A stretch of DNA of 64,000 bases from Actinomycetota bacterium (GTDB lineage Bacteria > Actinomycetota > UBA4738 > HRBIN12), in contig JBKJXU010000097.1 of the NCBI GenBank assembly GCA_046716145.1, forward strand, positions 9,676-73,675, given 5' to 3'. The notes under the pieces were generated by a model. The model did no database searches. It had not been told where the DNA came from and worked only from the letters and a program-made list of their open reading frames with translations. Of the stretch, positions 3,168-41,640 are shown piece by piece (position 1 is the first letter of the stretch; each line of letters opens with the position of its first letter). Both the position numbers and the translations under genes were made by a program.

Positions 3168-3170
3168 GAC

Positions 3171-15468: not shown

Positions 15469-17097
<1,629 letters not shown>

Positions 17098-17481: not shown

Positions 17482-17540
17482 CAGGATAGCCATGAGAGTG
17501 CCAGAGGGTCAACGAGGGGGCGGAGAACCGTGGACGACCC

Positions 17541-18764
17541 CTACGCCACGTTGTACCAATACCGGTGGGGCGTGCCCGGGGTGGACGTCATGGCGATCAG
17601 CCCCGTCGAAGCGCTCACCGTCTGTTTGGTCGACGTGGGGTTCGACAGCGTGTACACGTCGTCGGTGGTCCAGGGAATCGGGGCCTCGAACACCGGTGCG
17701 GACGCCGTGGCATGCCAGACGTAGGTGTCTCCTCCTAAGACGTTGGCGAACACGTGCACCTCATCCGCCAGGGGATCCACCACCACGATGGGGCGTGTGA
17801 AGTTGGATGTGACATCGCTCACCTGCACGGGCGACCAACCGGTCGACGTGCGTCGCAGGAGCATGACCAAAGGATCTGCCGGACTGGGCACCAGCGCGTC
17901 GTTCAGACTCGTCTTGACCGTGGCGTAGAGGGTGTCGCCGACCGCCTTGATGTTCAGGTGATCATCGGCGCAGGCGGTCGACGCCGTGACCGGGCATCCG
18001 GTGGCAGCTCCGAACGCCTCCTCGATCGTGAAGCTGGTACGGGACCTAGGAGCGGTGTCGTCCCGCGAGGCGAACAGGAAGCGTTGCGAAGCCTGATCCG
18101 ACCACAGGACACCGATCCGCCCGGGGCCGTAGGCGACGACGGCGGCGATGTCGTCGCTCGTAACCCCCGTGTCGGACACCCGGCGGAACGTGAACGCCGA
18201 CCCCCCGACCGACAGGTAGCCCGCCTTGATGGCCGCGGACTGCTCGAAGGCGACCCAGATCCGCCCCGTCGAGTCCTTGGCCACGGTGATCGTTTCGACG
18301 TTGGCGGTCGTGATCGCGGTCGGCGTCCCTTGCGCCGTCCAACCACCGGAACCGTCGTACGAGAGCCGGTGAAGGAGGCTCACGCGCGGGTTGGTCTCGG
18401 TCCCGGGCTTGTTGTCACGCAGGGACACCAGCAACTCGCTCGCGTCGGCATCGTAGGAAGCGTCGGCCTTGGCCCAGGGGTCGCTCTCGGGGAGCAGCAG
18501 CACCGGGGTCCATCCGGTCGGGTCGAGCCGGAAGAGGTAGACACCCGGGGTCACGTCCTTGGCCAAACCCAAGGCGGCCCACCAGATGCCGTCGGGGGTG
18601 TAGAAGAGCTTGCTCTCGGGCTTCTGGCCGGTCGCTTCAGCCCCTCGGCTGCTGACGGCGGAGCCTCGGAAGGGGCCCGGGATCCCCACCGTGTCCGCCG
18701 CGCTCGCCGGAAGCGCGATCGCGATGACCGCGAACGTGGTGAGGGCGATGAGGGTTCTGCGCAT
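17541..18764 (-). CDS. secreted BNR/Asp-box repeat protein (possible glycoside hydrolase/sialidase-like beta-propeller)
   Basis: Signal peptide MRRTLIALTTFAVIAIALPASA; several S-x-D-x-G-x-x-W-like repeats (SYDGSGGWT, KDSTGRIWVA, STGWSPV). Confidence 0.5.
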   Translation of the reverse strand: MRRTLIALTTFAVIAIALPASAADTVGIPGPFRGSAVSSRGAEATGQKPESKLFYTPDGIWWAALGLAKDVTPGVYLFRLDPTGWTPVLLLPESDPWAKADASYDADASELLVSLRDNKPGTETNPRVSLLHRLSYDGSGGWTAQGTPTAITTANVETITVAKDSTGRIWVAFEQSAAIKAGYLSVGGSAFTFRRVSDTGVTSDDIAAVVAYGPGRIGVLWSDQASQRFLFASRDDTAPRSRTSFTIEEAFGAATGCPVTASTACADDHLNIKAVGDTLYATVKTSLNDALVPSPADPLVMLLRRTSTGWSPVQVSDVTSNFTRPIVVVDPLADEVHVFANVLGGDTYVWHATASAPVFEAPIPWTTDDVYTLSNPTSTKQTVSASTGLIAMTSTPGTPHRYWYNVA

Positions 18765-18897
18765 GGCTTGAGGTCGGCGTCGGCCGCTACTTGAGAGTGC
18801 CTGAGGGCGCGCGGGAACGTCAATGGGACGAAGGTCTCGCCACCGGGGGAGCCGAAGGGCCGCCACGGCGATGGTGTCCCGTTGTTAGTTTGCCCGC

Positions 18898-19956
18898 ATG
18901 CTGAGGGACCGGGCGATGCTGGTGGAGGGTGGCATCGGGCACCAGTCCGCACGCGTGACGGTGGCAACGGCTCGGTTGTTGCACGCCGCCGGGGTCCACG
19001 TCGAGGTCCTGAGCTGGAACCCGTTTACGCTCGCCGGATCCACGCGCGCCGTCTCGCGGGTCGTGCGCGTGCCCGACGCGGAGCGCGCCGCCGAGAGCTT
19101 CGCGGATGTGAGCGGGGACCGCCTGGTCCTGCCGACGAGCGATGCGGCCGCGCTCGGGCTCTCGCTCCCTGGGTCGGGCCTGGTGGACAAGCGGGCGTTG
19201 TACGCGTACGCCCGCGAGCGAGGGGTGCCCGTCCCGGCGACGGATGTCTTCCCCGACGCGGAGAGCCTTCGAGACGCCGCCGCGTCTCTCGCGTACCCGG
19301 TGATCCTCAAGCCTGCGATCGGCAAACCGGTGATCCGAGCACGGTCGGCTACCGACGTGGAACCGTTCCTGCGGCGCGTGCAGCCGTCGACCGCGATCCT
19401 GGTGCAGACCGTCTTGCAGGGTCGCGTGCGCGCGGTCGCCGGGGTGGCCCGCGCGGGTGCCCTGGTCGGCGTCGTGCACCAGGTCGCGATCCGGGGCTGG
19501 CCCTCGACGAGCGGCACGACGACAGCCGCCGTGACCTCGGCTCCCGACCTCGCCCTCGAGGCGCACACGGTTGCGCTCGTCTCCGATCACGACGGGATCT
19601 TCCACGCCCAGTTCCTGGGCGGGAACGTGCTCGACCTCAACCTTCGGCCCTACGGCAGTATCGCGTTGGCTGCGGCCGCGGGCGTCAACCTGCCCGCGCT
19701 CTGCGCGGCCCTGGAGGCACCCGGGGCCGACGAGCCGATCAGAGCCCGCTCCGGGGTTCGCTACCGATGGATCGAGGCGGACATCCGGTTGGCGGTGGCG
19801 CGGATCCGCCGATCCCCCGGACGGACACTCTCGATCGCCTGGGAGCATCGGCCTCGATCGGGCACCGCGCACGGGGACGCCTCCACGGTCCGCGACCTCG
19901 GCCCCGCGTTCGGCCGGCTCCGCCTGGGGCGCGCCGTATCCCGAGGGCAGCTGTGA
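18898..19956 (+). CDS. ATP-grasp domain ligase (paralog 1)
   Basis: 352 aa; ATP-grasp core (YPVILKPAIG...), preceding pre-ATP-grasp domain; 4-nt GTGA overlap with downstream glycosyltransferase. Confidence 0.7.
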   Translation: MLRDRAMLVEGGIGHQSARVTVATARLLHAAGVHVEVLSWNPFTLAGSTRAVSRVVRVPDAERAAESFADVSGDRLVLPTSDAAALGLSLPGSGLVDKRALYAYARERGVPVPATDVFPDAESLRDAAASLAYPVILKPAIGKPVIRARSATDVEPFLRRVQPSTAILVQTVLQGRVRAVAGVARAGALVGVVHQVAIRGWPSTSGTTTAAVTSAPDLALEAHTVALVSDHDGIFHAQFLGGNVLDLNLRPYGSIALAAAAGVNLPALCAALEAPGADEPIRARSGVRYRWIEADIRLAVARIRRSPGRTLSIAWEHRPRSGTAHGDASTVRDLGPAFGRLRLGRAVSRGQL

Positions 19957-21071
19957 CCCCGCGCGCCACGCACGGGCGCGACGGCGTGTTGGTGGTCGGC
20001 CAGGGGCCGCCGGCTCGCGGGGGGATCCCTTCCTTCATCACCATGCTCCTCGATGACCCCGTGCTCGCCCACCGCGCCCGGCTCACCGCGCTCAACACCT
20101 CCCGGGCGCCGGCCCGACCGGGAGCAGCGACGCCCGCGAACGCCTGGTCGACCCTCCGCGACCTCGTACGCGTGTTCACCGCTGGGCGACGGGTGCGCAT
20201 CGTCCACCTGCACGTGGCGCCTGCGCCCCTGCTACCGCTGATGCGAGCGTCAGCGCTGGCCATCGCCGGGCGGATCTCGGGCGCGAAGGTGATCGTGCAC
20301 GCGCACAGCGGTCGGATGCACATCGCCGCCGCCTCGAGCCGCACCTACCGGGCCGGTCTCCGCTGGCTCGTTCGCATCGCGCATCGGATCGTGGTCGTGT
20401 CGAGCGACGGCGCCGACGTGTTGCGACGAGCGGGCGGCGAGCCGATCATGCTCCCGAACGCCGTCGACATCGGGCCGTCGGACCCCCCGTCGCGACCCGG
20501 GTCGCGGATCGTGGTCTTCGTGGGCACGGTGTGCGAGCGCAAAGGCCTGGATGACCTGCGGCTGGCCCTCGTCTCGCTCCGCGACGCAGGCGAGGAGGCG
20601 GCCGTGCCCGCGGGGGTCATCATCGTGGGTGACGGCCAGCAAGAGGGTCCGGGAGCATTCGATCGGGTCCGTGCCGCCTACGCGGCGAGCGGGCTGCTCG
20701 ACCTGGTCCGCTTCACCGGGGCGCTTCCTCCCGCAGGCGTCCGCTCCGAGCTGACGCGAGCGAGCGTGTTCTGCCTGCCCTCGCACTGGGAAGGTTCGCC
20801 CATCTCGATGCTCGAGGCGATGGCGGCCGGATGCGCGATCATCGCGACGCGTGTGGGTGAGATCTCATCCGTGCTGGAGGAGGCGGGGATCGTCATCGAA
20901 CCTCGTGACCCGGCCGCGCTCGCGGGAGCGATCGGCGGTCTCATGGCCGAACCCGCACGGAGAGCGGCACTCGGAGCGCATGCCCGGGAGCGCGTGGTGA
21001 GGAACTTCTCGCTCGACACGATGCGGGAGCGGCTGCTCGCGATCTACGCGGGCCTCGGTTACTCCAGGTAG
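19953..21071 (+). CDS. glycosyltransferase family 1 (GT4-like)
   Basis: GTG start overlapping ATP-grasp stop; C-terminal EGSPISMLEAMAAGCAIIAT (EX7E region). The 5' part of track ORF 18882-21071 is an Arg-rich alternate frame of the ATP-grasp gene. Confidence 0.8.
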   Translation: MTPRATHGRDGVLVVGQGPPARGGIPSFITMLLDDPVLAHRARLTALNTSRAPARPGAATPANAWSTLRDLVRVFTAGRRVRIVHLHVAPAPLLPLMRASALAIAGRISGAKVIVHAHSGRMHIAAASSRTYRAGLRWLVRIAHRIVVVSSDGADVLRRAGGEPIMLPNAVDIGPSDPPSRPGSRIVVFVGTVCERKGLDDLRLALVSLRDAGEEAAVPAGVIIVGDGQQEGPGAFDRVRAAYAASGLLDLVRFTGALPPAGVRSELTRASVFCLPSHWEGSPISMLEAMAAGCAIIATRVGEISSVLEEAGIVIEPRDPAALAGAIGGLMAEPARRAALGAHARERVVRNFSLDTMRERLLAIYAGLGYSR

Positions 21072-22696
21072 CCCAGACCTCGCAACGACTCTTCGATCTG
21101 CCGCTCGTCCTCTTCGGTGAAGGGGTAGACCGCGGGGTCGTCGCCCCCGTCGCCGCGCGCTTCGGCACCCGGCGCGACGTTCCGTTCGGCGCCCGTGGCC
21201 GCACGCGACACGATCTCTTCGGCCACGCGGCCGTCGAGCCCGTCGGGGACGCCGAGCCCCGCAACGCGGAACGCCGTCGGCAGGACGTCCACCACCCGCA
21301 GCGATCGCGGGATCGGCCCCGGCACGAAGGACGGACCGGCGCCGATGAACACCCCGTCCTGATGGTGATAACCCCACGGCCGATCGCGATGGTCGGTGAG
21401 CGGGGACGTCGCGGCGAGCGTGTCGGACAGTTCGTATCGCTGATCACGACAGATCGGGAACAGGTGCGGAGCCCGGGACGCGAACGGTCCGACGGCCGCT
21501 TTGTGGCGTGGGATCACGCGATCGACCACGGGGTCGCCGTCGGCCGGGTCGACGAGACCGAGGAGCCGTTCGGTGATCTCCGCGGTGACCTCCTCGGTGC
21601 GCCCGGCGTCGAGCACCCCGTGCGGCAACGCAGGACCGCGCTCGTTCACATGGATCCCCTGTTCGGCCACCTGCGATGCGAACGCCTCGGTGCTGTCCCA
21701 GTCCAGTCCTCGGTTGATGCGGTTCTTCGCCTTCAGCAACAGACCCCGAGGCAACAGGCGGCGTGCCGCCGCTTGGATCGGGCCGGCGACCACCCCGGCG
21801 CGCGTGATCCTGCTCACGGCCGGGAGCCGCAGGTACCCCCACTCGTGCAGCAAGAGGTTGACATTGAGCGTCTTCTCCCACGGCCCCGCCCCGTGATCGG
21901 AGACGATGAGGACATCGCCTTCGGGACCGGCCCACGCGACGAGATCCGCGATCGCGAGGTCGAGCTCGGCGAAGTATGCCCACGCGCGCTCGCGCATCCG
22001 CGGCGCCTCCGGCCGTGCGTACCAGTCCGAGCACTCCACCAGGTACTGGTAGTGCAGGTGCTGCAGGCGGTCGGTCCCTTCGAACACCGCGAAGACCATG
22101 TCGACGTCACGCCGTTCGAGCAGCGCCCCCAGAACCGCCCTGCGCTTGATCTGGATCGCGGTGACCTCGTCGATCGCGGAGGGACGCGTCCAGTCGTTCT
22201 CATACGACACGACCGTGTCGATCGGGTAGGACCCGCCGGTCACCTCGCGGATCACGTCGGCCACCTCCGGGTCGGAGGCGAACCCATCGACATCCGGAGA
22301 GGTCCAACCGGCCGCCAGGCCGCCGGACACGAGGAACCCCCGCACACCGGGAGCGGGTGGGTAGGTCATCGGCACGTTGTAGACGCCGATCGAGACGTCG
22401 CGTGCTTCGGTGAACCGCCAGATCGGGGTCGACGCGATCGTCCCCGCATGCGCGATCTTCGCCGGCTCCTGCGGAGTGGTGGCGAGGAAGCCGTAGACGT
22501 TGTGCCGGCCGGGGTTGACCCCGGTGATCATCGAGACCCAGGCGGGCGGCGTGTACGCAGGGGTCGTCGAGGTCAGCGTGCCGTGTGCGCCGCGGTCTCG
22601 GAGCGCGGCCAGGGCCGGCATCACGCCCGCAGCGAACAACGGGTCGAGCAGCCGGGAAGTCGCGCCGTCGAGCCCGATGATCGCCGTTTTGCCCAC
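21059..22696 (-). CDS. AlkP-superfamily type I phosphodiesterase/nucleotide pyrophosphatase family protein (paralog 2)
   Basis: GTG start at 22696 preceded by GGGAGG SD; VGKTAIIGLDGATS...TPPAWVSMITGVNPGRHNVYGF, SDHG; acidic C-terminal tail ...EEDERQIEESLRGLGYLE. Confidence 0.75.
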   Translation of the reverse strand: MGKTAIIGLDGATSRLLDPLFAAGVMPALAALRDRGAHGTLTSTTPAYTPPAWVSMITGVNPGRHNVYGFLATTPQEPAKIAHAGTIASTPIWRFTEARDVSIGVYNVPMTYPPAPGVRGFLVSGGLAAGWTSPDVDGFASDPEVADVIREVTGGSYPIDTVVSYENDWTRPSAIDEVTAIQIKRRAVLGALLERRDVDMVFAVFEGTDRLQHLHYQYLVECSDWYARPEAPRMRERAWAYFAELDLAIADLVAWAGPEGDVLIVSDHGAGPWEKTLNVNLLLHEWGYLRLPAVSRITRAGVVAGPIQAAARRLLPRGLLLKAKNRINRGLDWDSTEAFASQVAEQGIHVNERGPALPHGVLDAGRTEEVTAEITERLLGLVDPADGDPVVDRVIPRHKAAVGPFASRAPHLFPICRDQRYELSDTLAATSPLTDHRDRPWGYHHQDGVFIGAGPSFVPGPIPRSLRVVDVLPTAFRVAGLGVPDGLDGRVAEEIVSRAATGAERNVAPGAEARGDGGDDPAVYPFTEEDERQIEESLRGLGYLE

Positions 22697-22903
22697 CGTC
22701 GCCTCCCGACGTACGCTCGCGTGCGTCACAGCAGGATACGGGCAGGCAGGCGTGCGCCCACCCGGCCGATGGAGGGGACGAGGAGGGACCGGTCGGCCGA
22801 TGCGTCCGGACCTTTCGACCGGGTACCGTGTCGTCCCCCGAACGGGGGATCGGTCTCGGATCGATGAGTCGCGCGCTCGTGGCACGGTCGGAGGGACCAG
22901 CGC

Positions 22904-23884
22904 ATGATGGACAAGATCCTCGAGATCATCGAACGGCGATGGACGCTCGCGGTGTTGACCGGCGCCCTCATCGGCTCGTCGATCGGCTTGCTCGGAACCA
23001 TCACGGCGCCCGATGTCTACGTCGCTCGCTCGCTCGTCGTCCTCACCAACGCGAGCATCCCGCCCGAAGAGTTCGCCGGGGTAGCTGGGGCGATGTTCCC
23101 GACCGATGCGGTCCTGCGTCCCGTCATCCGCCAGCTCGGGTTGGATCGAACGCCCAGCCAGTTGATCGCGGACGGGTCCGTGTCGTTGGAACCCCAGCCC
23201 GGCGGCCTGGCCGTGAACGTCGTCGCCCGGACGAACGGACCGGACCTCGCCGTCGCTATCGCGAACGCGACGGCAGCCCAACTCGCCGACGTGAGCCAGA
23301 TCAATGGGATCGGTGAGCTCGCCGAGTTCCCCGCGGAGGGCCCAGCCGGGGTCCAGGCCGACTCGCCGCTGCGCGGGATCGCCCTGGGTGCTCTCATCGG
23401 CGCGGTGATCGCGGCGCTCGATGTGGCGATCGTCTTCCTGTTCCGGCGCAGGAGCCTCGGCTCCGACGGGAGGTTCCGGTTCGACGCGATGGTGCGCGCG
23501 AGCGTGACGGCCGCCACCGAGGAGACAACGTCTCCGACGGTGAGCGCCGCGTATCCGCTGGGGGCCCTGCTCGGCATGCTCGGTGAAGAGGCGGGCGGGC
23601 ATGAGGTGGTCGCCGTGGTCCTGGACGGTGGGCGCGACCTGTGGGCCTCGCTCGCGGCAGCCGACGAGCTCAGGCGTCTCGCGGAAGGTCGCCGCTCGGG
23701 CGGCTTCCGCGTGCTCTCCCCCGGCGAGGAGCCATCCGACGAAGACACCGCGGGCCCTGTGCTCGTGATCGCGGCCGACCACACGCCGGCCTCGCGGCTA
23801 CGTGACCTCCGCCGCCGGCTCCGCGACAGCAACGGTGACGCGACCACGGCCCTGCTCTTGGTCCGCGCATTCGACGGAGGCTGA
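22904..23884 (+). CDS. Wzz-like polysaccharide chain-length determinant / co-polymerase family protein
   Basis: N-terminal TM (LAVLTGALIGSSIGLLGTI), periplasmic region, second TM (LGALIGAVIAALDVAIVFLF), cytoplasmic C-terminal domain. Confidence 0.5.
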   Translation: MMDKILEIIERRWTLAVLTGALIGSSIGLLGTITAPDVYVARSLVVLTNASIPPEEFAGVAGAMFPTDAVLRPVIRQLGLDRTPSQLIADGSVSLEPQPGGLAVNVVARTNGPDLAVAIANATAAQLADVSQINGIGELAEFPAEGPAGVQADSPLRGIALGALIGAVIAALDVAIVFLFRRRSLGSDGRFRFDAMVRASVTAATEETTSPTVSAAYPLGALLGMLGEEAGGHEVVAVVLDGGRDLWASLAAADELRRLAEGRRSGGFRVLSPGEEPSDEDTAGPVLVIAADHTPASRLRDLRRRLRDSNGDATTALLLVRAFDGG

Positions 23885-23888
23885 AGCC

Positions 23889-24785: not shown

Positions 24786-24938
24786 GCGGCACGCCCCTTC
24801 ACCGGCCTGGTCACCGCGGACCAGATCCTGGCAGGATGCGCGGGATCCCCCCTCACGTTTCGCCCCTTCCCCGCCGATGTTCTTCCATGAGTGGGGACCG
24901 TTCCTGGCCACGCTCAGCCGGAGGGACGGAAGGGGTTC

Positions 24939-25916: not shown

Positions 25917-25938
25917 CACCGCACCGAGGGAGGTCCGC

Positions 25939-33348: not shown

Positions 33349-33446
33349 GCCGGTGCGCGAACTCAGACGGGGTGCCATGGGGGTCGTATCATCGCAGCAC
33401 GCCGTTGCGCCACCGCCGGCACCCGTGAAAGGACCTGCGATCGACC

Positions 33447-34235: not shown

Positions 34236-34304
34236 GCCGAAAGGCGGGGTTTTCAGTCGACGGGGGTCAATGTATGCTCCCTACGCACACGAGGAGCAGC
34301 CCCT

Positions 34305-35690
34305 TTGGCCTACGTACAGCCCCCCGAACGCATCACCCGGACAGTGGGCACCCGGGTCGGTACCACACCCACCGAGGTCCGCGACCGTCGCGCCGAGCGG
34401 GTCTCCACGCGCAGACTCGTCCTCGCGCTCGATATCGTCGTGCTCGGGGTCTTCGTTGCGTCGTTGCCAGGTGCGGCCGTCGCGCTCTATGCGGCACTCG
34501 CACTCCTGGGATTGAAGAGCGTCGGCGTCTACGGGGCCAGGCTGATGCCACGCGTCGGCGATGACGTCCCGCGATTGCTCGCCGCGGTCGCCGTCCCCGC
34601 CGTCGTGCTGCCGTGGGTCGCTGCGCCGGAACTGGCCGTGCAGCTCACGACACGGATCCCCGCGCTGCTCCTGGCGCTCGTCGCCGGGCGCTCGGTCACC
34701 TATTGGATCCTGCACCGCGCTCGCGCGACGGGGCGGCGACACGAACGGGTCCTGATCGTCGGAGCCGGCGATCGCGGGCGCGACCTCGCCCGCATCCTCG
34801 TCGAGCGCCCGCGGTTCGGCCTCGAGCCGGTCGGCTTCGTGGACGAGGCCGCGATCGCACCCCTCCCCCATCCGTTGCTCGGGGGCGTCGACGACCTCCC
34901 CAAACTCGTTGCCGTGCACGGGATCGACCGCGTGATCGTCGCGGAATGGGAGGGCGAAGACGAGGATCTGATGCACGTGCTGCGGGCCTGCACCGAACAC
35001 CGGGTCCACGTGCACGTCGCGCCACGCTTGTTCCAACTCGGGACCGCCCCATCGGGGCCGTCCACGGACTGGTTGTGGACGACGCCCTTGGTGCGACTGT
35101 CCGAAACCCCGCAACGAACGCGCGCCTGGCGAGCCAAGCGCCTGATGGACATCTCGGTCGCGGCGATCCTCCTGGTGGTCTCGGCACCGCTCTGGCTCGC
35201 CGCCGCCGTCGCGATCAAGTTTTCGGGGCCGGGCCCGGTCCTGTTCCGCCAGGTCCGCTTGACGGAGGGCGGACGCCTCTTCGAAGTCCTCAAGCTCCGG
35301 ACGATGCCTGTGAACGACACATCGGATACTCGATGGGGCGATGCCGGGCAACAGCCGACGCGGGTGGGTCTCCTCCTTCGGCGATCGGGCTTGGACGAGC
35401 TCCCGCAGTTGCTCAACATCATCAAGGGCGAGATGTCGCTCGTGGGACCGCGCCCCGAACGGCCGTACTTCGTCGAGCGCTTCTCCACATCGATCGAGGG
35501 CTACCGCGACCGCCTGCGCGTCCCGGCGGGGCTCACGGGGTGGGCCCAGGTCCACGGCCTGCGCGGGGAAACCTCGATCGAGGAACGGGTGATGTTCGAC
35601 AACGAGTACATCGAGTACTGGTCGTTGTGGCGCGACATCGTGATCCTCGTCCGCACGATCAAGGCCTTCGTCGTGGGCGAGGGCTCGTAG
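34305..35690 (+). CDS. undecaprenyl-phosphate glycosyl-1-phosphate transferase (WbaP/EPS priming sugar transferase family)
   Basis: 461 aa; N-terminal TM block, C-terminal bacterial sugar transferase domain (KRLMDISVAAILL...PGPVLFRQVRLTEGGRLFEVLKLRTM...DELPQLLNIIKGEMSLVGPRPE). Confidence 0.85.
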   Translation: MAYVQPPERITRTVGTRVGTTPTEVRDRRAERVSTRRLVLALDIVVLGVFVASLPGAAVALYAALALLGLKSVGVYGARLMPRVGDDVPRLLAAVAVPAVVLPWVAAPELAVQLTTRIPALLLALVAGRSVTYWILHRARATGRRHERVLIVGAGDRGRDLARILVERPRFGLEPVGFVDEAAIAPLPHPLLGGVDDLPKLVAVHGIDRVIVAEWEGEDEDLMHVLRACTEHRVHVHVAPRLFQLGTAPSGPSTDWLWTTPLVRLSETPQRTRAWRAKRLMDISVAAILLVVSAPLWLAAAVAIKFSGPGPVLFRQVRLTEGGRLFEVLKLRTMPVNDTSDTRWGDAGQQPTRVGLLLRRSGLDELPQLLNIIKGEMSLVGPRPERPYFVERFSTSIEGYRDRLRVPAGLTGWAQVHGLRGETSIEERVMFDNEYIEYWSLWRDIVILVRTIKAFVVGEGS

Positions 35691-35709
35691 CCGGCGCCCC
35701 CTCCCCCCC

Positions 35710-36723
35710 GTGGACACGACGGTCATCATCCCCGCCCGGAACGAGGAAGCCTCCATCGAGCGCTGCCTCACCTCGGTCTTGGCGCAGGACGCGCCCGACC
35801 TGGAGGTCATCGTCATCGACGGTGCGTCGACGGATGGCACCCTCGCCGTCATCGAGGCGATCGCCGGGTCCGACCACCGCGTCCGCATCCTGCACAACCC
35901 CGACGGCGCCATCCCTGTGTCCCTGAACATGGGGCTGATGGCGGCGCACGGACGGTGGCTCGTCCGCGTCGACGCGCATTCGACGGTGCCGCCGGGATAC
36001 GTTCGCACGCTCACCGGACACCTGGCAACGGGTCGCTGGGGCGGCGTCGGAGGCCGCAAGGACGCGGATGCAAGCACACCCATGGGCGAGGCGATCGCGC
36101 TCGCTCTGGGATCCCCGGCCGGCGTGGGTGATTCCGCCTACCACTGGGCGCAGGAACCACGCCGCACGGATCACGTTCCGTTCGGCGCCTACCCGGTCGC
36201 GCTCCTGCGCACGCTGGGGGGCTGGGACGAGCGCCTGGACGCGAACGAGGACTACGAGATGGACCTGCGTATCCGCCAGGCCGGGCACGACCTCCTGCTC
36301 GACCCCGCCGTACGTATCCGCTGGCGATCCAAGGATTCGCTCGGTGCGCTGTGGCGCCAGTACCTGCGCTACGGACGCGGCAAGGCTGACGTCGCGCGAC
36401 TGCACCCGGGGACCCTCGCCCCCCGCCACCTGGCCGCCCCCGCGATGGTGGCAGGCGTCTCGATGGCAGTGCTCATCGCCCCGCTCGCACCCGCGGCCGC
36501 GGCACTGCTCGCCGCCCCGTACCCGATGTTCGTGCTCGGCGCTGGCGTGTGGATCGCAGTACGAGCCGGCCGCGCATCATCGGCGCCGAGGATCGCCGCG
36601 GCCCTCGCCACGATGCACGTGGCCTGGGGGCTCGGGTATTGGCAGGGACGCGTGCGTCCTCGGATCCGATCGCGCGCCGGGGGCGTCGCGGCGGTTCAGT
36701 CGCCCGCGGGCCCCGTCCGGTAG
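35710..36723 (+). CDS. glycosyltransferase family 2
   Basis: VIIPARNEE...VIVIDGASTDGT GT2 N-terminal signature, DxD region (DANEDYE), C-terminal TM segments. Confidence 0.8.
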   Translation: MDTTVIIPARNEEASIERCLTSVLAQDAPDLEVIVIDGASTDGTLAVIEAIAGSDHRVRILHNPDGAIPVSLNMGLMAAHGRWLVRVDAHSTVPPGYVRTLTGHLATGRWGGVGGRKDADASTPMGEAIALALGSPAGVGDSAYHWAQEPRRTDHVPFGAYPVALLRTLGGWDERLDANEDYEMDLRIRQAGHDLLLDPAVRIRWRSKDSLGALWRQYLRYGRGKADVARLHPGTLAPRHLAAPAMVAGVSMAVLIAPLAPAAAALLAAPYPMFVLGAGVWIAVRAGRASSAPRIAAALATMHVAWGLGYWQGRVRPRIRSRAGGVAAVQSPAGPVR

Positions 36724-37682
36724 CCACGCGCCTCCAGGTGCCCGCCGATCGCTTCCTCGAGCTGCTCCACCTGGCGAACCGTGAGATCGCCCCGGAACGC
36801 CTCGCGCCGCCCGGTGGCCACGGGGTAGGCCTCGAACGCGGCCTCGAACCGCTCATCCCATGCAAGCCCCGCGGTCTCCAGGATGGCCGGCCAGTGCGTT
36901 CGGGGCTCAGCGACCAGATCCTCGTAGCGCAGCTCGAGCCACCGATCATCGCCGACCTCCTCGCGCGCGGCGTCGAAGGCGTCCATCAGGATCCGCCACT
37001 CGAGGCCCGCCAGCGTGATGAGAGACCGGTCGTGCTTCGCCCAGATCTCCGCGAGCTCCGGTGAGAGATCGCCGAAGCCCCAGCCGGGTACACCCAGGCG
37101 TCCCTTCCACCATGGCCGCTGTACGATCGACGATGCCACGGCCCGGCCGTCACGGACCACGTGGAGGAACCGCGCTTCCGGCATGACCGCGTGGATGAAC
37201 CGAGCACGAGGCCACCCCGTGAACTTGTGCATGAAGACCGGCGTGCCCTGCGCCTGCGCACGCTCGGTGAAGAACGTGCGGAAACGCGCGGCGAGCCAGG
37301 GCGTGACATCGTCCGCGTTCAGATCGCGGAACGGCTCCGACACGATCGGCGACAGGTGCCTGTCGATCAGCCGGTAGGCCTCCGACGGACCGAAGTGAAC
37401 GTGCTCGGCGAGCGTGTACCGGCGGTGCTTGAGGTAGGCGCTGTCGCGACGCGCGAGCGACCCGGACACGACGCGAGCCAACGCTCGGTTCGCCCTCCCC
37501 TTCGGGTTGAACGCCGAGAGCGCCATGTCGACGTTCGAGATGTACCCGACGTCCGGATGGTGGGCGATGAGTTCCTGCACGAGCGTCGAACCGCACCGGC
37601 CGGTCACGATGATGAACAGGAAGCGTGGATCGCTCACGACCCCCCCTCCCCCGAACGGCTCGCTGCCCGGGACTTCAACCAT
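36696..37682 (-). CDS. PAPS-dependent sulfotransferase (Stf0-like, paralog 3)
   Basis: 5'-PSB FIIVTGRCGSTLV, 3'-PB VVRDGRAVASS; 328 aa. Confidence 0.75.
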   Translation of the reverse strand: MVEVPGSEPFGGGGVVSDPRFLFIIVTGRCGSTLVQELIAHHPDVGYISNVDMALSAFNPKGRANRALARVVSGSLARRDSAYLKHRRYTLAEHVHFGPSEAYRLIDRHLSPIVSEPFRDLNADDVTPWLAARFRTFFTERAQAQGTPVFMHKFTGWPRARFIHAVMPEARFLHVVRDGRAVASSIVQRPWWKGRLGVPGWGFGDLSPELAEIWAKHDRSLITLAGLEWRILMDAFDAAREEVGDDRWLELRYEDLVAEPRTHWPAILETAGLAWDERFEAAFEAYPVATGRREAFRGDLTVRQVEQLEEAIGGHLEARGYRTGPAGD

Positions 37683-38782
37683 GCCTTCGCGGAGGCCGGA
37701 ACCCTGTTCCGCACGCCATCAGCCACGAACGAGGGGGCGACACCGACCCACGTCCGAGGTGAAGCCGCAGCGCGCGAAGGCACCAGGCGGACCCAATCGA
37801 GGTCCTCCGCGTGGTCGGTGAACCGGGCCTTGTACCCCTGCCGGCCCGCTCCGAGGCCCACGGACGTGTCACCGGACGCCCACGCATGCTCGATCGCGGC
37901 CAGGAGCGTCACCATCGCCGGAGAGTACCGCGCGAACCGATCGTCGAAGCCACCGAGCCAGTAGCCCGCCCGGCCGCCGGCGCAGATGAACAGATGCGAG
38001 GAGATCGTCTCGCCGCCGAGGTCCACGGACCACAGGCGGAAGCGCCCGGACGGCAGGAGTTCCTCGGCCAGGTCCGCCAGGAAGGCGCCCGTCGCGGGCC
38101 TGAGCCGGCCGGAGCCGCCCCTCCACTCCCAGCGGCTCTCGTGCAGCCGCTCGAACGCAGCCAGATCCGCGTGAGCCTGCCCCACGCTCGCCGACAGACG
38201 CACCACGGCACCCTCGGCCTCCAGTTGACGGCGACGGCGCCGGAGCGTCTGCCGGAAGTTCGTGCTCTTGGCCGCCATCCAGTCGTCGAAGGACGTGCCC
38301 GCCATCACGATCGTCGGCAGGGGCCGGCGCGCCTCGCGCTGCAGGACCGCCCCGCCCGGCCACCCACGACGCAGCGCCTGCGGCCAGGGCGAGCTCGCGG
38401 GCACGCCGTCGAGGTGGACCGCGTGCAGACGCGGCCGGGCCTCCGCGAGCCCCCCCGCGATCGCAGCGGCGACCTCGCGCTCACGCCCAGCCGCGGCGAG
38501 CGGGCCGAGAGGGGTTCCCCCGTAGCGGGCTGCCAGGAGCCGGCCATGCCAGGTACCGGCCGTCTCGCGAACGAGGTGGAACGCCCCGAGCCCGACCAGT
38601 TCATCGCCATCGCGGACCGCGAACACCCGCAGATGGGCGCCGGGTGGGGCGAGATGACGCCACCACGCGAGCATCCACGCCGGTCCCGCGTAGGGCAGAC
38701 CGAGGCCCACGGCGAGTCCGTCCCACTCGTGGAGGAGCCCCGGAAGGTCTTCCTCGCGCTCGAACGTCGTCGTGTGCAGCAC
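37634..38782 (-). CDS. GNAT-fold acyltransferase (Acetyltransf_6 / CelD-BioF2-like)
   Basis: 382 aa; architecture and motifs of the FemAB-like GNAT family common in polysaccharide loci. Confidence 0.6.
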   Translation of the reverse strand: MLHTTTFEREEDLPGLLHEWDGLAVGLGLPYAGPAWMLAWWRHLAPPGAHLRVFAVRDGDELVGLGAFHLVRETAGTWHGRLLAARYGGTPLGPLAAAGREREVAAAIAGGLAEARPRLHAVHLDGVPASSPWPQALRRGWPGGAVLQREARRPLPTIVMAGTSFDDWMAAKSTNFRQTLRRRRRQLEAEGAVVRLSASVGQAHADLAAFERLHESRWEWRGGSGRLRPATGAFLADLAEELLPSGRFRLWSVDLGGETISSHLFICAGGRAGYWLGGFDDRFARYSPAMVTLLAAIEHAWASGDTSVGLGAGRQGYKARFTDHAEDLDWVRLVPSRAAASPRTWVGVAPSFVADGVRNRVPASAKAWLKSRAASRSGEGGS

Positions 38783-38854
38783 CGTTCTCCCATCGACAAG
38801 GCGTCCGAGCGAGGTTAGCGGGCCGGGCGGGCCGGCACGCCCGCCCCCTGGCGT

Positions 38855-40264
38855 TCAGGAATCGAATCCGAGCCCGACCGCGTCGAGCAGGCGAAGCCAT
38901 GGACCCCGGCGCCCCTGCCGGCGGTCGGCCCGAGCCAGCGCCCGGCGCGTGAGCCACACACCCGCCGATCGCAACGGCTCCGGCGGGAACGGCAGTGGCT
39001 TCGTCCGTACCATCCGCAGGCGCGTGCGCTCCGTGTCACGTCCGTCCACCAGGTCGAGCGCCACGCGGGCGCCCCAGCGCGTCGCCCCGACACCGAGACC
39101 CGTGTAGCCGGCCGCATAGGCCACACGCCCGTCCAACTCGGTGCCGAAGAAGACACAGAACCGGCTGCACGTGTCGATCGCCCCGGCCCAGGCGTGGGTG
39201 AACCTCACGCCTTGCAGTTGCGGGAATGTCTGGAAGAACTGGCTCGCCAACAGACGGTAGGTCTGGGGACGCCGCTCGAGTTTGGGTCTGACGCCGTTGC
39301 GCCAGTGATAGATGGCGTCGTACCCACCCCAGAGGATCCGGTCGTCGCGGGTGAGCCGGTAGTAGTGGAACTGGTTGCCCATATCTGCCAGGCCCTGCCG
39401 GTTGCGCCACCCGATGGCGTCCATCTGTGCCTTCGACAGCGGCTCGGTCATCAAGACGTAGTCGTAGACTGGCACGACGTAGCTGCGTATGCGGCGAACG
39501 AGCGGTGGGAACGCGTTCGTCCCGAGCACCACCCTGCGCGCGTGGACCCGGCCTCGCCCCGTGGCGAGCGATACGCCGTCACCCTCCGGCGACATCGCGT
39601 GCACGGGGGTGAACTCGTGGATCCGCACCCCGAGCCCCGCCGCGGCCTCGGCGAGCCCCCATGCGAGCCGTGCAGGGTCCACCTGCGCGCCGAGGCCCTT
39701 GATCCACATCCCCCCGAGATAGGTGGGGGAGCCGACCTCCGCTCGCACCGCCTCCTCATCGAAGAGGACCGATCCATGACCGTGCGCCACCGCTCGCTCG
39801 ACGGCGTGCGCGCACCACTGCACCTCGTGCGGCTCGCGCGCGACCATGAGGGTCCCTGTCGGCTCCCAGTCACAGTCGATGTCGTAGCGCTCGAGCGTGT
39901 CGCGCAACCCGTCGAATGCCGCCCGGCCTTGCCGATCGATCTCGTCGATCTCGTCGGGGAAACGCCGGATCCCGTTGGGAAGCCCGTGGGTCAGCGAGGC
40001 TTCGCAGAAGCCACCGTTCCGGCCGCTCCCCCCGAAGGCGATCCGCTCGCCTTCCACGAGGATCACGTCGCGTCCGGGGTCTTCCTCCTTCGCGTGGATC
40101 GCTGTCCAGAGCCCGGTGAACCCGCCTCCGACGACGGCCAGGTCCGCGGAGGTATCGCCCGCGAGCGGCGGCCGAGGCTCCGGGCGGTCGGTTCGATCGA
40201 GCCAGAACGGCACGGGGGAAGCGTCGGCGAGCGCCGCGTCGATCCACGGCTCGGACGACGTCAC
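38855..40264 (-). CDS. FAD-dependent oxidoreductase (DAO family)
   Basis: GTG 40264 overlaps cupin stop (GTGA); dinucleotide-binding LAVVGGGFTGLWTA; the first about 70 residues of the listed ORF are an Arg-rich alternate frame. Confidence 0.75.
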   Translation of the reverse strand: MTSSEPWIDAALADASPVPFWLDRTDRPEPRPPLAGDTSADLAVVGGGFTGLWTAIHAKEEDPGRDVILVEGERIAFGGSGRNGGFCEASLTHGLPNGIRRFPDEIDEIDRQGRAAFDGLRDTLERYDIDCDWEPTGTLMVAREPHEVQWCAHAVERAVAHGHGSVLFDEEAVRAEVGSPTYLGGMWIKGLGAQVDPARLAWGLAEAAAGLGVRIHEFTPVHAMSPEGDGVSLATGRGRVHARRVVLGTNAFPPLVRRIRSYVVPVYDYVLMTEPLSKAQMDAIGWRNRQGLADMGNQFHYYRLTRDDRILWGGYDAIYHWRNGVRPKLERRPQTYRLLASQFFQTFPQLQGVRFTHAWAGAIDTCSRFCVFFGTELDGRVAYAAGYTGLGVGATRWGARVALDLVDGRDTERTRLRMVRTKPLPFPPEPLRSAGVWLTRRALARADRRQGRRGPWLRLLDAVGLGFDS

Positions 40265-40638
40265 CCGCTCACGTCCGCCAGGGTGATCTGATAGACCTTG
40301 CGGAGCGTTTCGTGCACCGTCCAGCGGGTCCGCGCCCCGCGCGCGAGCACCGCCATGTCGCCCGGTTCGACCTCCAAGGTCTCCCCGCCCTCGACCTCGA
40401 TGGTCGCCCTCCCGTGGACGACGATGAAGACCTCGTCTTGCTCCACGTCGATCACGGTGCCTTCCGTGATCTCCCACACGCCTCGGAGCACGCGGCCGTC
40501 GGCGGAGGACCAGAGCAGCGCTTCGGTCACCCTGGGCGAGCCTTCCAGCACGGTGGCGGGATCGAGGACGCCCTCATCCAGGACGAGGTCGGCGACGTGG
40601 ATCGCGAACGTGCTTCCGGGTCCGGCGGGCTCAGGCAC
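40261..40638 (-). CDS. cupin domain protein
   Basis: 125 aa; two-motif cupin pattern (DEVFIVVHGRATIEVEG...PGDMAVLARG). Confidence 0.65.
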   Translation of the reverse strand: MPEPAGPGSTFAIHVADLVLDEGVLDPATVLEGSPRVTEALLWSSADGRVLRGVWEITEGTVIDVEQDEVFIVVHGRATIEVEGGETLEVEPGDMAVLARGARTRWTVHETLRKVYQITLADVSG

Positions 40639-40695
40639 GCGCGAGAGGCTACCCCGAGATCTTGAGCTCCGACCGATCCGCTCGGTCGAGCTCCG

Positions 40696-41640
40696 TCAAA
40701 CCCCCTTGAGGTACGCGACCGTCTCCGCGAGCCCATCCTCGAGGTGGGTCCAAGGTTTCCATGCGATCGCGCTCGAGGCGCTCGCGATGTCCAGAGCGCT
40801 CCGGCGGAGCTCCCCGGACGGCAGCGCGCCGTGCTCGGGGTCGCCCGCGAACCCCGTGATGTCCGCGAGGAGGCGGTACAGACCGTTCACGCTGGTCTCG
40901 AGTCCCGTCCCGATGTTCACGGTCTTGCCCGAGCCACGATCCATCGCCTGGGCGAACGCGTGCACGACATCGTCCACGAACACGTAGTCCCGCGTCTGGT
41001 TGCCATCGCCGAAGATGACGGGGGTCTTCCCGGCGAGCATCGCCGAGGCGAACAGCGCGATCACGCCGGCCTCGCCGAACGGATCCTGGCGGGGTCCGTA
41101 GACGTTGGCCAACGCCAGGGCCGTGAAGTCCAGGCCCCGGTACCGCTGGAAGAAGGCGAGGTAGTCGAGGACCACCTTCTTCGAGACACCGTACGGGCTG
41201 AGGGGATGTGAGCTCTGGGCGGCCGATTCCTTCGCCGGGATCCGCTTGGGCTCGCCGTAGAGGGTTCCACCGCTCGCGGCGAAGACCACCTTGCGCACGC
41301 CCACCGCGTGTGCGCACGTCAGCAGGTTGAGCGTGCCCATGATGTTGACGCTGGCGTCGTGCGATGGATCCTCCAGCGAAGGCCGCACCCCCGCCTGGGC
41401 GGCGAGGTGGAAGACGACCTCGGGGCGATGACGCTCGAAGAGGGGAAGCAGGCCCTCGGCTCGCACGTCCATGTTGAAGAAGGTGTAGGCCTTGCCGTAG
41501 CCGCGAGCCTCCGCGAGGTTGGCGATCCGTCCCGTGGACAGGTCGTCCACCGCGATCACGCGATGGTCTTCAGCCAGGAGCCGGTCGGCCAGGTTGGAGC
41601 CGATGAACCCGGCCCCCCCGGTCACCAGGACGGTCGTCAC
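40696..41640 (-). CDS. NAD-dependent sugar epimerase/dehydratase (UDP-glucose 4-epimerase-like SDR)
   Basis: GTG 41640 overlapping tsaD stop; VLVTGGAGFIGS Rossmann motif, YxxxK (SPYGVSKK). Confidence 0.85.
   Translation of the reverse strand: MTTVLVTGGAGFIGSNLADRLLAEDHRVIAVDDLSTGRIANLAEARGYGKAYTFFNMDVRAEGLLPLFERHRPEVVFHLAAQAGVRPSLEDPSHDASVNIMGTLNLLTCAHAVGVRKVVFAASGGTLYGEPKRIPAKESAAQSSHPLSPYGVSKKVVLDYLAFFQRYRGLDFTALALANVYGPRQDPFGEAGVIALFASAMLAGKTPVIFGDGNQTRDYVFVDDVVHAFAQAMDRGSGKTVNIGTGLETSVNGLYRLLADITGFAGDPEHGALPSGELRRSALDIASASSAIAWKPWTHLEDGLAETVAYLKGV

Follow-up and report, generated by a model that had tools for sequence, protein, structure and literature searches.

RESULTS

Limits and Gene Content of the Insert

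The DNA analysed here (64,000 nucleotides, referred to as the window) comes from an uncultured soil actinobacterium that is known from metagenome assemblies only. It contains a housekeeping block, with alr, UDG, tsaE, tsaB, rimI and tsaD in this upstream order together with glmS and glmM, which hosts the locus described below (Table 1). Gene calling by codon usage places 21 genes (g19 to g39) between tsaD and groES rather than the 17 of the initial annotation, which had left out the two secreted proteins g19 and g25, the FAD oxidoreductase g37 and the Cupin_3 protein g38. They are laid out, as had been described, in divergent or convergent blocks, seven in number, with several 4-nt overlaps.

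On the groES side the limit of the insert is the groES promoter-like site and its CIRCE operator, TTAGCACTC-N9-GAGTGCTAA, which has 0 mismatches and gave 0 matches across 100 shuffles. On the tsaD side the epimerase g39 overlaps tsaD by 4 nt and is translationally coupled to it; because it is 80% identical in the island-less relative L075 and adjoins tsaD in L151, it lies outside the insert and belongs to the conserved context. The insert proper thus spans 17541-40638 (20 genes, ~23 kb). Of the two genes at its tsaD-side edge, g38 is variable, occurring in L081 but in neither L084 nor L089, and g37 matches TIGR03329 at 233.8 bits, below the cutoff of 632.8. A 65% identical g37 orthologue sits at the equivalent edge in L084 and L089, and the gene is absent from L075 and L151.

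Table 1. Features of the insert and its surroundings (window coordinates)
Feature	Assignment	Position	Strand	Profile match
g12	APS kinase, beyond groEL	11187-11819	minus	APS_kinase E 6.7e-57
g13	Third AlkP/NPP-family protein, beyond the region first flagged	11819-13228	minus	PF01663 E 2.3e-39
groEL		15469-17085	minus	
groES		17098-17400	minus	
groES control site	Promoter-like site (17512-17483) and CIRCE (HrcA) operator	17455-17512	minus	
g19	Secreted seven-bladed beta-propeller; last insert gene, beside groES promoter	17541-18764	minus	
g20	ATP-grasp ligase; core gene	18898-19956	plus	ATPgrasp_Ter 25.7 bits (below cutoff of 29.1)
g21	GT4 (GT1-fold) glycosyltransferase	19953-21071	plus	Glyco_trans_1_4 E 1.7e-27; Glycos_transf_1 E 5e-26
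g22	Cytoplasmic AlkP/NPP-family enzyme A	21059-22729	minus	PF01663 E 1.7e-29
g23	Two-TM protein, putative polysaccharide co-polymerase (Wzz-like) 1	22904-23884	plus	
g24	Two-TM protein, putative co-polymerase 2	23889-24785	plus	
g25	Secreted domain, function unassigned; core gene	24975-25916	plus	
g26	Wzy_C-family polytopic membrane protein, putative repeat-unit polymerase	25939-27300	plus	PF04932 57.9 bits (cutoff 31.7)
g27	Sulfotransfer_1 enzyme, carbohydrate type	27297-28223	plus	PF00685 E 4.1e-13
g28	Wzx-type flippase (MOP superfamily)	28196-29740	minus	Polysacc_synt 66.3 bits (cutoff 28.2); MatE
g29	Sulfotransfer_3 enzyme	29737-30609	minus	PF13469 E 1.7e-32
g30	Cytoplasmic AlkP/NPP-family enzyme B	30617-32161	minus	PF01663 E 1.9e-36
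g31	Second ATP-grasp ligase; variable accessory	32158-33378	minus	ATP-grasp_3 E 4e-7
g32	CE4 polysaccharide deacetylase, cytoplasmic	33447-34235	plus	Polysacc_deac_1 E 2.3e-28
g33	Polyprenyl-phosphate hexose-1-phosphate transferase (WbaP/WcaJ type)	34305-35690	plus	Bac_transf E 1e-56; CoA_binding_3
g34	GT2 glycosyltransferase	35710-36723	plus	Glycos_transf_2 E 1.4e-27
g35	Sulfotransfer_3 enzyme	36696-37637	minus	PF13469 E 4.4e-22
g36	FemAB-type GNAT (Acetyltransf_6); variable accessory	37634-38782	minus	PF13480 E 4.8e-29
g37	DAO-family FAD amine oxidoreductase; tsaD-side insert edge	38855-40264	minus	PF01266 E 1.3e-55
g38	Cupin_3 protein; first insert gene, tsaD side	40261-40638	minus	PF05899 E 1.2e-17
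g39	GalE-like NAD-dependent sugar epimerase	40696-41640	minus	Epimerase E 2e-58
tsaD		41637-42644	minus	PF00814 E 5.6e-91

Genes for Polysaccharide Assembly

Profile searches uphold the family assignments made initially, apart from the Wzz-like pair, for which the evidence is topology and weak matches of orthologues. Most assignments exceed curated cutoffs, namely those of the priming transferase, GT2, GT4, Wzx, Wzy_C, CE4 and the three sulfotransferases. Pfam matches confirm the two glycosyltransferases, the GNAT, the CE4 deacetylase and the epimerase, and the three sulfotransferases, two ATP-grasp proteins and two AlkP/NPP proteins are present as claimed. The priming transferase g33 also scores above the cutoff of TIGR03025 (346.7 bits against 295.55), the flippase g28 has a multi-TM topology, and g21 overlaps the ATP-grasp gene g20 by 4 nt. 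The Wzy_C protein g26 has at least 10 TM-like segments and orthologues of 35-72% identity in all related clusters.

The TM segments lie at ~14-35 and ~154-182 in g23 and at ~8-43 and ~150-185 in g24, and in relatives g24 always adjoins g23 and Wzy. Neither window protein gave a family match in profile searches. Among the g23 orthologues (4 homologues were found), the N-terminus approaches the Wzz profile PF02706 in L084 (24.7 bits, cutoff 25.5), L083 (E 2.5e-3) and P0225 (E 0.073), as does the L083 orthologue of g24 (E 1.4e-3), so that assignment of the pair as PCP/Wzz proteins is sub-threshold and weakly supported. The matches uphold the description as a glycan assembly locus of Wzx/Wzy type that includes three PAPS-type sulfotransferases, but that of a complete pathway goes too far, given this weakly supported pair and the lack of any LCP anchoring or export component among the Pfam-scanned window genes. 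The genes scanned, which reach up to ~56 kb, where the ribosomal-protein end of the window begins, likewise yielded no BY-kinase.

Sulfotransferases and PAPS Supply

Each of the three sulfotransferases retains both PAPS-binding motifs intact. In g27 these are PKAATGS (5'-PSB) and RDPVDRLWS (3'-PB), and the nearest solved structures are heparan-sulfate 3-O-sulfotransferases and the N-sulfotransferase domain of NDST (E ~1e-10). The motifs of g29 (QRSGTS and RDGRDVAYS) and g35 (GRCGST and RDGRAVASS; 313 aa with the L081 start) accompany a nearest resemblance, among solved structures, to protein-tyrosine (TPST) and polyketide (CurM) sulfotransferases. The g29 gene always lies directly downstream of g30, and this AlkP-sulfotransferase adjacency is kept in L081, L083, L084, L087 and L089. 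L083 and L084 have g35 orthologues of 70-72% identity; the orthologue of L086 is 49% identical and lies beside g19-like and g25-like domains. Sulfation itself we infer from this gene content.

The two AlkP/NPP-family enzymes of the insert are 28% identical to each other and, to judge from their residues, both retain an intact two-metal site. In g22, for which topology prediction gives no TM segment, conservation extends to the metal ligands and the S/T nucleophile region, and the C-terminal tail LRGLGYLE is invariant; its orthologues in L083, L084, L085 and L087 are 61-87% identical. In g30 (514 aa, taking the start from a 97%-identical MAG) the invariant positions are D6, S39/T40, D198, H202, D256, H257 and H424 together with an LRGLGYIE tail. 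A search at E<1e-10 found 486 homologues of g30 of ~520 aa, chiefly in Actinomycetota MAGs, and the PDB gave a weak match only, to phosphonoacetate hydrolase.

A third family member, g13, shares 26-27% identity with g22 and g30. It overlaps the APS kinase gene g12 by 1 nt, the two forming an operon (11187-13228), and g12 is located 5.7 kb outside the island edge. In 68 of 68 metagenomic loci the g13 homologue is succeeded within 0-72 nt by an APS kinase gene, which ties this uncharacterised AlkP family to PAPS metabolism; in L155 a SulP sulfate permease lies downstream. As part of the conserved backbone, present in island-less lineages as well, the APS kinase is not specific to the island. The same scan of window genes, up to ~56 kb, turned up neither ATP sulfurylase nor CysQ. 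Because their paralogue is so strictly paired with APS kinase, g22 and g30 most likely service sulfation chemistry, e.g. by clearing the inhibitory product PAP, a role suggested by gene context.

Other Modifying Enzymes and Secreted Proteins

The modifying enzymes of the island have no signal peptides or TM segments, g32 included, whose NCBIfam matches comprise PgaB-type and HfsH-type deacetylases. For g20 the NCBIfam matches are weak and of RimK/LysX type; its orthologues occur in L084, L085 and L088, with the GT4 gene always adjoining. The second ligase, g31, is shared by the window with L081 and L082 only, and the slot of g36 is filled by a PF04185 phosphoesterase in L083, L084 and L089, an Acetyltransf_6 gene being present also in L087. 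The products of g19 and g25 carry signal peptides and have relatives fused to carbohydrate-binding or cell-wall-binding modules, among them CWB2 domains in g25 relatives. No solved structural relative was found for g25. The propeller g19 resembles glycan-active families barely more than generic propellers, and is probably a glycan-binding or glycan-cleaving protein.

The Locus in Related Genomes

The island occupies the equivalent site in the relatives L081, L084, L085 and L089, with proteins 50-87% identical. The core set is in the same order in these four and in L083, and rearranged in L087 and L088 (35-60% identity); in more distant Actinomycetota a 15-gene core is found at 35-60% identity. 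In L087 and L088 the clusters lie in other genomic contexts, and therefore the module moved at some point. The metagenomic relative L151 has an empty site, in which epimerase, CIRCE operator and groES follow one another with CIRCE 54 nt past the epimerase stop, and the close relative L075 has at the junction a small cargo of another kind, GNAT and MFS genes. Direct succession of tsaD and groES, which the initial annotation had described for many Actinobacteria, holds for some Coriobacteriia and Bifidobacteriaceae MAGs and fails in Streptomyces, where the genes are 3-9 kb apart. That the island interrupts a junction is borne out by the empty site, with the restriction that this junction runs from the epimerase, which is conserved context, to groES.

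DISCUSSION

The gene content and its conservation point to a chromosomally fixed, lineage-conserved locus (17541-40638) that probably directs the Wzx/Wzy-dependent synthesis of a sulfated heteropolysaccharide of the cell surface. The insertion would have occurred in the clade ancestor, in the interval from the epimerase stop to the groES promoter, and been followed by divergence in place. In the proposed pathway, the APS kinase g12 would serve PAPS synthesis and so supply the sulfotransferases, and g33, placed by its family, would load a hexose-1-phosphate, the presumed substrate, onto polyprenyl phosphate. The repeat unit would be lengthened by g34 and g21, deprived of an N-acetyl group at the cytoplasmic face by the signal-less g32, and given up to three sulfates from PAPS by g27, g29 and g35, while g20, g31 and g36 may add amide-linked substituents, possibly amino-acyl groups. 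Wzx g28 would then flip the unit across the membrane for polymerisation by g26, with chain length set by g23 and g24, and the secreted g19 and g25 may bind or trim the polymer extracellularly.

An island acquired recently by horizontal transfer, as the initial annotation might be read, would agree with its absence from L075 and L151 and with the displaced clusters of L087 and L088, but we regard such an origin as very unlikely. The GC, GC3 and tetranucleotide usage of the island match those of its flanks (GC3 0.863 against 0.882; tetranucleotide correlation to the flanks 0.975±0.006, with flank windows themselves at 0.969±0.010), no tRNAs, no flanking repeats and no integrase or transposase genes were found, and the copies at the same site have diverged to 50-87% identity. 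The island is therefore not recent. Over the epimerase segment, moreover, the island-bearing L084 and L089 are nearer to the window (86.5%) than is the island-less L075 (76%), and comparison of these loci indicates that the island is old and vertically maintained within this clade.

A different question is what the locus makes. It might be a composite, in which a plain Wzx/Wzy cluster is mixed with sulfotransferases, ATP-grasp and AlkP enzymes acting on another substrate; a sulfated peptide (tyrosine sulfation), a lipid or a small metabolite are the candidates. The structural neighbours of g29 and g35, the peptide bonds formed by ATP-grasp and FemAB enzymes, and the g35-type gene of L086, where the 12.7 kb retrieved contain g19-like and g25-like genes and no Wzx/Wzy, would suit such an arrangement. 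We nonetheless think it improbable, as the genes for the sulfotransferases and AlkP enzymes are interspersed among those for Wzx, Wzy and the glycosyltransferases, to which they are translationally coupled (e.g. the 4-nt overlaps g26/g27 and g28/g29), this interleaving is kept in every relative, g27 is of the carbohydrate type, TPST and CurM are the main solved Sulfotransfer_3 members, and the island has no precursor peptide, NRPS or PKS gene. Somewhat more weight, though still as an unlikely outcome, is due to a product that, in place of a free or loosely attached exopolysaccharide, is a wall-anchored anionic secondary cell-wall polymer or a glycan ligated by Wzy_C to protein or lipid (WaaL/PglL type). 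Wzy_C proteins can be ligases instead of polymerases, g26 is the single Wzy_C gene of the island, and its best NCBIfam match, below cutoff at 50.7 bits, is to a putative O-glycosylation ligase family. The gene set, Wzy included, is kept across deep lineages, unlike hypervariable capsule loci, the locus has alr, glmS and glmM as neighbours in a housekeeping block, and CWB2 domains, which are of a cell-wall-binding type, occur in g25 relatives. Against this, the scanned window genes include neither an LCP (LytR-CpsA-Psr) ligase nor a gene for an acceptor protein, and the paired two-TM PCP-like proteins beside Wzy suggest polymerisation with chain-length control. In a wall polymer, sulfate would take the role of teichoic-acid phosphate.

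For the preferred reading, a sulfated Wzx/Wzy-dependent heteropolysaccharide, there are several systems to compare. To our knowledge, sulfate-decorated surface polysaccharides have seldom been documented in bacteria other than cyanobacteria. The sulfated capsule locus of Cobetia marina reportedly combines sulfotransferases with PAPS-synthesis genes. In animals, heparan-sulfate NDST acts as N-deacetylase and then as N-sulfotransferase; the insert likewise has a deacetylase (g32) together with a sulfotransferase (g27) close to the NDST N-sulfotransferase domain and to the 3-O-sulfotransferases, but its deacetylase has another fold and the two are separate proteins, so that NDST-like deacetylation-sulfation is suggested by resemblance only.

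The combination of PAPS genes with sulfotransferases has been proposed as a hallmark of sulfated polysaccharide synthesis (PMC11641403), and is seen in the capsule locus of the marine Vibrio sp. KMM 8419, which is Gram-negative, dependent on an ABC transporter (Kps) and carries a second cysDNC copy inside (PMC11641403), whereas the insert has nearby only the backbone APS kinase, with an AlkP-family partner in place of sulfurylase. Wzx/Wzy clusters with sulfotransferases are described for synechan (xss) and for Actinoplanes wps-1 (PMC8205485, PMC13390465). The Synechocystis xss cluster shares with the insert Wzx/Wzy, a PCP (putative in the insert), several glycosyltransferases and PAPS-type sulfotransferases of two subfamilies, and sulfation is proposed there to occur at the lipid-linked unit (PMC8205485). 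It differs in its cyanobacterial megaplasmid location, its 8 glycosyltransferases, 2 sulfotransferases and XssQ/R/S regulator and, as far as the available text goes, in having no AlkP/NPP-family enzymes, ATP-grasp ligases, CE4 deacetylase or secreted propeller (PMC8205485). Synechan sulfation has been shown chemically (PMC8205485), whereas that of the insert's product is predicted from genes. The wps-1 cluster of Actinoplanes missouriensis (PMC13390465, 2026), compared here by description, belongs to a cultured genus and is tied to sporangium formation; it differs from the insert in carrying a GH26 enzyme, a methyltransferase and a kinase-like protein, and the terms 'Alkaline phosphatase' and 'ATP-grasp' each occur 0 times in the text of that paper. 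Like the insert, where Wzz is putative, this actinomycete cluster combines Wzx/Wzy/Wzz with sulfotransferases of different families (two, one of them heparan-sulfate-like) and includes a glycan-degrading enzyme, and its predicted product is a sulfated EPS (PMC13390465).

Gene Content and Limits of the Insert

A glycan-assembly gene set does lie between tsaD and groES, as the initial annotation had described, but the 17 genes then counted become 21 (g19-g39) in a codon-usage gene call, which gives 71 genes for this window of ~70% GC. The four genes absent from the earlier count encode the secreted proteins g19 and g25, a DAO-type FAD oxidoreductase (g37) and a cupin (g38). The accompanying statement that tsaD directly abuts groES in many Actinobacteria holds for some Coriobacteriia and Bifidobacteriaceae MAGs but not for Streptomyces, where the two are 3-9 kb apart. 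Between alr and tsaE lies a UDG-superfamily gene, which is placed likewise in the related locus L075 and in loci of Coriobacteriia and Bifidobacteriaceae (L001, L017, L080) but not in those of Streptomyces.

Positions of the genes around the island, of its two secreted proteins and of the APS kinase pair
Feature	Coordinates	Strand	Remark
alr	44988-46088	-	upstream block
UDG-family gene	44347-44913	-	upstream block, between alr and tsaE
tsaE	about 43925-44350	-	followed by tsaB, rimI, tsaD
tsaD	41637-42644	-	followed by 21 genes, then groES
g25, secreted protein	24975-25916
g19, secreted protein	17541-18764
groES	17098-17400	-
groEL	15469-17085	-
g13, PF01663 AlkP/NPP protein	11819-13228	-	overlaps g12 by 1 nt; 26-27% identical to g22 and g30
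g12, APS kinase	11187-11819	-	E 6.7e-57

At the tsaD end, the GalE-like epimerase g39 overlaps tsaD by 4 nt, an arrangement of translational coupling. At the other end, a promoter-like site (17512-17483) and a perfect CIRCE (HrcA) operator (17455-17481, TTAGCACTC-N9-GAGTGCTAA, with 0 matches in 100 shuffles) directly follow the g19 stop codon, the operator lying between the promoter-like site and groES. The CIRCE element is also present at the unoccupied junction of a metagenomic relative, L151, in which a 114-nt spacer with a perfect CIRCE (1403-1429) separates the epimerase stop (1349) from the groES start (1464). A scan of a genome collection with TsaD listed matches mostly from distant phyla; L075 was the sole close one and is the nearest relative among the matches listed, its flanking proteins being ~80-89% identical. 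In L075, tsaD is followed by an epimerase 80% identical to g39, then by unrelated cargo of 2.8 kb, consisting of two GNATs and an MFS transporter, and finally by groES; a 414-aa ORF beside groES, considered as a counterpart of g19, proved to be an unrelated MFS transporter. These relatives bear out the insertion, and since the epimerase is shared with both of them and the promoter and CIRCE come right after the g19 stop, g39 is conserved context. The boundary previously drawn at 41640 is therefore corrected, and the insert proper extends over 17541-40638, comprising 20 genes and about 23.1 kb that lie between the stop codon of the epimerase gene and the promoter of groES.

Further features were recorded in the flanks. 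A VapC (PIN)/VapB-like toxin-antitoxin pair (7162-7826) lies between guaA and an IMPDH-like gene, and a second, solitary PIN gene (1572-2006) adjoins a sortase gene (888-1562). The region 2700-5600, of lower GC (0.63-0.65), is the sole compositionally odd part of the window and contains two ORFs, an unannotated one of 384 aa (3171-4325) and one of 295 aa (4584-5471) that carries a matrixin/reprolysin-type zinc-protease motif. Next to glmM and glmS is a gene for a low-molecular-weight phosphotyrosine phosphatase (51815-52210); the window genes scanned included no BY-kinase partner for it. No matches came from an Rfam scan covering the whole window.

Age and Origin of the Insert

The initial annotation took the island to be probably horizontally acquired; as a recent event this is not supported, in view of the native composition, the lack of mobility hallmarks and the presence of the island at the same site in related lineages. 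The proposed comparison of GC, codon usage and tetranucleotides showed the island to match its flanks: island windows correlate with a flank-only tetranucleotide profile at 0.975±0.006 and flank windows, treated by leave-one-out, at 0.969±0.010; both have a GC of about 0.70, and GC3 is 0.882 in the flanks and 0.863 in the island. A check of the island for mobility hallmarks found 0 tRNAs, short flanking repeats at chance level only, and no integrase, transposase or other mobility domain in any island ORF.

At the same site, the related locus L081 has an island with 94.9% nucleotide identity, colinear over 21.5 kb, and L085 has a g19 homologue (78% identical) with groES and groEL directly after it. 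The islands of L084 and L089 begin after the same epimerase and encode proteins 46-77% identical to those of the window. In the shared epimerase segment, L084 and L089 are closer to the window, with 86.5% identity compared with 76% for the island-less L075, and in GroEL and g15 L085 is at least as near the window as L075. The simplest history would be one insertion in the ancestor of the clade, followed by divergence in place, the alternative being loss or replacement in the line of L075. Clusters related at 35-60% identity occur in other contexts, beside groEL on its other side in L087 and elsewhere in L088, so that the module predates this insertion and has moved at some time. In L087 (L087:15290-17634) the cluster is downstream of groEL (73% identical) and not upstream of groES, and its g30 is 49% identical.

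The label of L089 (GCA_050257835.1, Planctomycetaceae) raised the case of a cross-phylum transfer, which was rejected on account of the synteny of its 19-kb contig with the actinobacterial L084. This synteny includes the housekeeping epimerase and comes with ~84% nucleotide identity, and the contig is thus probably mis-binned.

Assembly Machinery

The earlier functional assignments were all reproduced in place by family searches, with weaker results for the Wzz-like pair. Matches were obtained for a WbaP/WcaJ-type transferase, GT2, GT4, Wzx, Wzy_C, CE4, the GalE-like epimerase and an Acetyltransf_6 GNAT, as well as for three sulfotransferases, two ATP-grasp proteins and two PF01663 AlkP/NPP proteins. 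The initiating polyprenyl-phosphate sugar-phosphate transferase g33, of the WbaP/WcaJ type, matches Bac_transf with E 1e-56 and TIGR03025 with 346.7 bits against a curated cutoff of 295.55, and the multi-TM g28 matches Polysacc_synt (66.3 bits, cutoff 28.2) as a Wzx flippase of the MOP superfamily. The repeat-unit glycosyltransferases g34 (GT2) and g21 (GT4) each score above their cutoffs. With at least 10 TM segments, g26 reaches 57.9 bits for Wzy_C (cutoff 31.7), a family that includes ligases too, so that polymerase activity is not readable from sequence.

For g23 and g24, the pair previously called Wzz-like, no family match was found in the window. Both have two TM helices either side of a ~120-aa extracytoplasmic loop, and four orthologues have sub-threshold Wzz matches at the correct N-terminal position (best 24.7 bits, cutoff 25.5); a role as putative co-polymerase (Wzz/PCP) is plausible, not established. 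Wzy can be aligned across related loci at 35-72% identity, which suggests that the repeat unit is conserved, unlike that of a hypervariable serotype locus.

A fifteen-gene core recurs across the loci, made up of all of g19-g30, g32, g33 and g34-g35, and the variable genes are g31, g36, g37 and g38. In L083, L084 and L089 a PF04185 phosphoesterase takes the place of the FemAB-type GNAT. With 28% identity between g22 and g30 and 30% between g29 and g35, the members of each pair are ancient paralogues, and their origin by a recent duplication was rejected.

Modifying Enzymes and Secreted Proteins

The sulfotransferases g27, g29 and g35 are all above Pfam cutoffs, have both PAPS-binding motifs (5'-PSB and 3'-PB) intact, and are encoded by genes interleaved with those for Wzx and Wzy. 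The nearest solved structures of g27 are heparan-sulfate 3-O-sulfotransferases and the NDST N-sulfotransferase domain, and those of g29 and g35 are tyrosylprotein sulfotransferases and the CurM sulfotransferase, the main solved members of Sulfotransfer_3. PDB matches of g31 and g36 were spurious or generic to ATP-grasp only. As no signal peptide or TM segment was detected in the modifying enzymes, the CE4 deacetylase included, modification would be expected on the lipid-linked unit, ahead of flipping by Wzx. The earlier functional reading of the locus is largely supported, and we infer the chemistry of the product throughout from gene content and context.

Comparison of g19, g25 and g30 with solved structures gave no useful sequence match. 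In a distant MAG (L086:1385-7594), a g19 homologue and a g35-type sulfotransferase are accompanied by a PF04185 phosphoesterase that carries a fused g19-like domain and by a 537-aa protein with a g25-like domain; the 12.7 kb retrieved for L086 contains no Wzx or Wzy gene. The fusion of these domains to other secreted enzymes beside a g35-type sulfotransferase links g19 and g25 to the predicted sulfated product.

The AlkP/NPP Family and APS Kinase

The APS kinase g12 sits 5.7 kb from the island edge, across groESL, and belongs to a conserved backbone (groESL, g13, cysC, guaB-like gene, guaA) present in island-less lineages too. Searching metagenomes with g13 gave 80 loci, 70-89% identical. For 68 of these the sequence continues downstream for at least 500 nt, and in every one of the 68 an APS kinase gene follows the g13 homologue on the same strand after 0-72 nt. 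One locus has, directly downstream of the pair, a gene for a SulP-family sulfate permease containing a STAS domain (L155:2931-4694). The window genes scanned included no ATP sulfurylase, and no canonical ATP sulfurylase or CysQ was seen adjoining the g13-g12 pair. A 254-279-aa ORF that recurs downstream of the APS kinase in relatives was considered as CysQ and is without a Pfam match.

The bimetallo ligands and the Ser/Thr nucleophile (D6, S39/T40, D198, H202, D256, H257, H424) are invariant in 13 members including g22 and g30, and g13 has the AlkP motif equivalents GLDCG, TPP, DRLHH and SDHG. An invariant C-terminal tail, LRxLGY(I/L)E, which may be a docking peptide, is found in g22, g30 and all aligned homologues and is absent from g13. 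A sulfotransferase gene follows g30 in the window (7-nt gap), L081, L083, L084, L087 and L089, but not in L088. Gene context thus ties the family, as a candidate participant, to PAPS or PAP chemistry, and its strictly conserved linkage to APS kinase in an operon suggests a step of PAPS or PAP metabolism that has yet to be described. A putative PAP phosphatase would be the conservative guess; a nucleotidyl-transfer enzyme, an NPP-fold sulfurylase, is speculative. Nothing relevant emerged from a search of the literature for this AlkP family in combination with sulfotransferases or ATP-grasp enzymes, nor did any paper on the proposed link to PAPS or PAP chemistry.

DISCUSSION

Sulfated polysaccharides are valuable both industrially and medically. 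According to papers as recent as 2026, their occurrence in bacteria is still essentially confined to cyanobacteria (PMC8205485, PMC13390465). The window locus, and the reappearance of its 15-gene core in many uncultured Actinomycetota from soil, suggest that the envelope of a whole lineage may regularly include sulfated surface glycans; if true, such glycans would be no curiosity. Several proteins of the locus are also concrete candidates for novel chemistry. Among them are the three sulfotransferases, which represent two families, and the cytoplasmic deacetylase, which could free an amine to be N-sulfated or acylated. The others are a large family of secreted domains without a solved structural relative, and the AlkP-fold family paired with APS kinase, which is the most interesting open element of the locus.

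A broader proposal, which we consider improbable, concerns the cytoplasmic, ~470-560-aa AlkP/NPP-fold proteins g13, g22 and g30. They would form an unrecognised class of PAPS-pathway enzymes, and the island would use the chemistry of this class to make a conserved heparan-like N/O-sulfated, amino-acylated envelope polymer. Such a polymer would be a permanent trait of an actinobacterial lineage that is widespread in soil and uncultured. Such enzymes could be PAP phosphatases replacing CysQ or, more radically, NPP-fold sulfate adenylyltransferases in which a Thr-AMP intermediate passes AMP to sulfate, feeding the APS kinase that always shares their operon.

Three known systems invite comparison. 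The synechan xss cluster of Synechocystis combines Wzx/Wzy with two sulfotransferases, and there sulfation was chemically shown (PMC8205485). The wps-1 cluster of Actinoplanes missouriensis has Wzx/Wzy/Wzz and two sulfotransferases, with sulfation inferred (PMC13390465), and for marine Vibrio and Cobetia, with their sulfated capsule loci, sulfotransferases combined with PAPS genes are proposed as the hallmark (PMC11641403). The window locus would work like all of these. From the three as described it is set apart by the conserved enzymes of the AlkP fold, the ATP-grasp ligases, the cytoplasmic CE4, the secreted propeller and the g25 domain; it is, moreover, fixed in the chromosome of an uncultured lineage.
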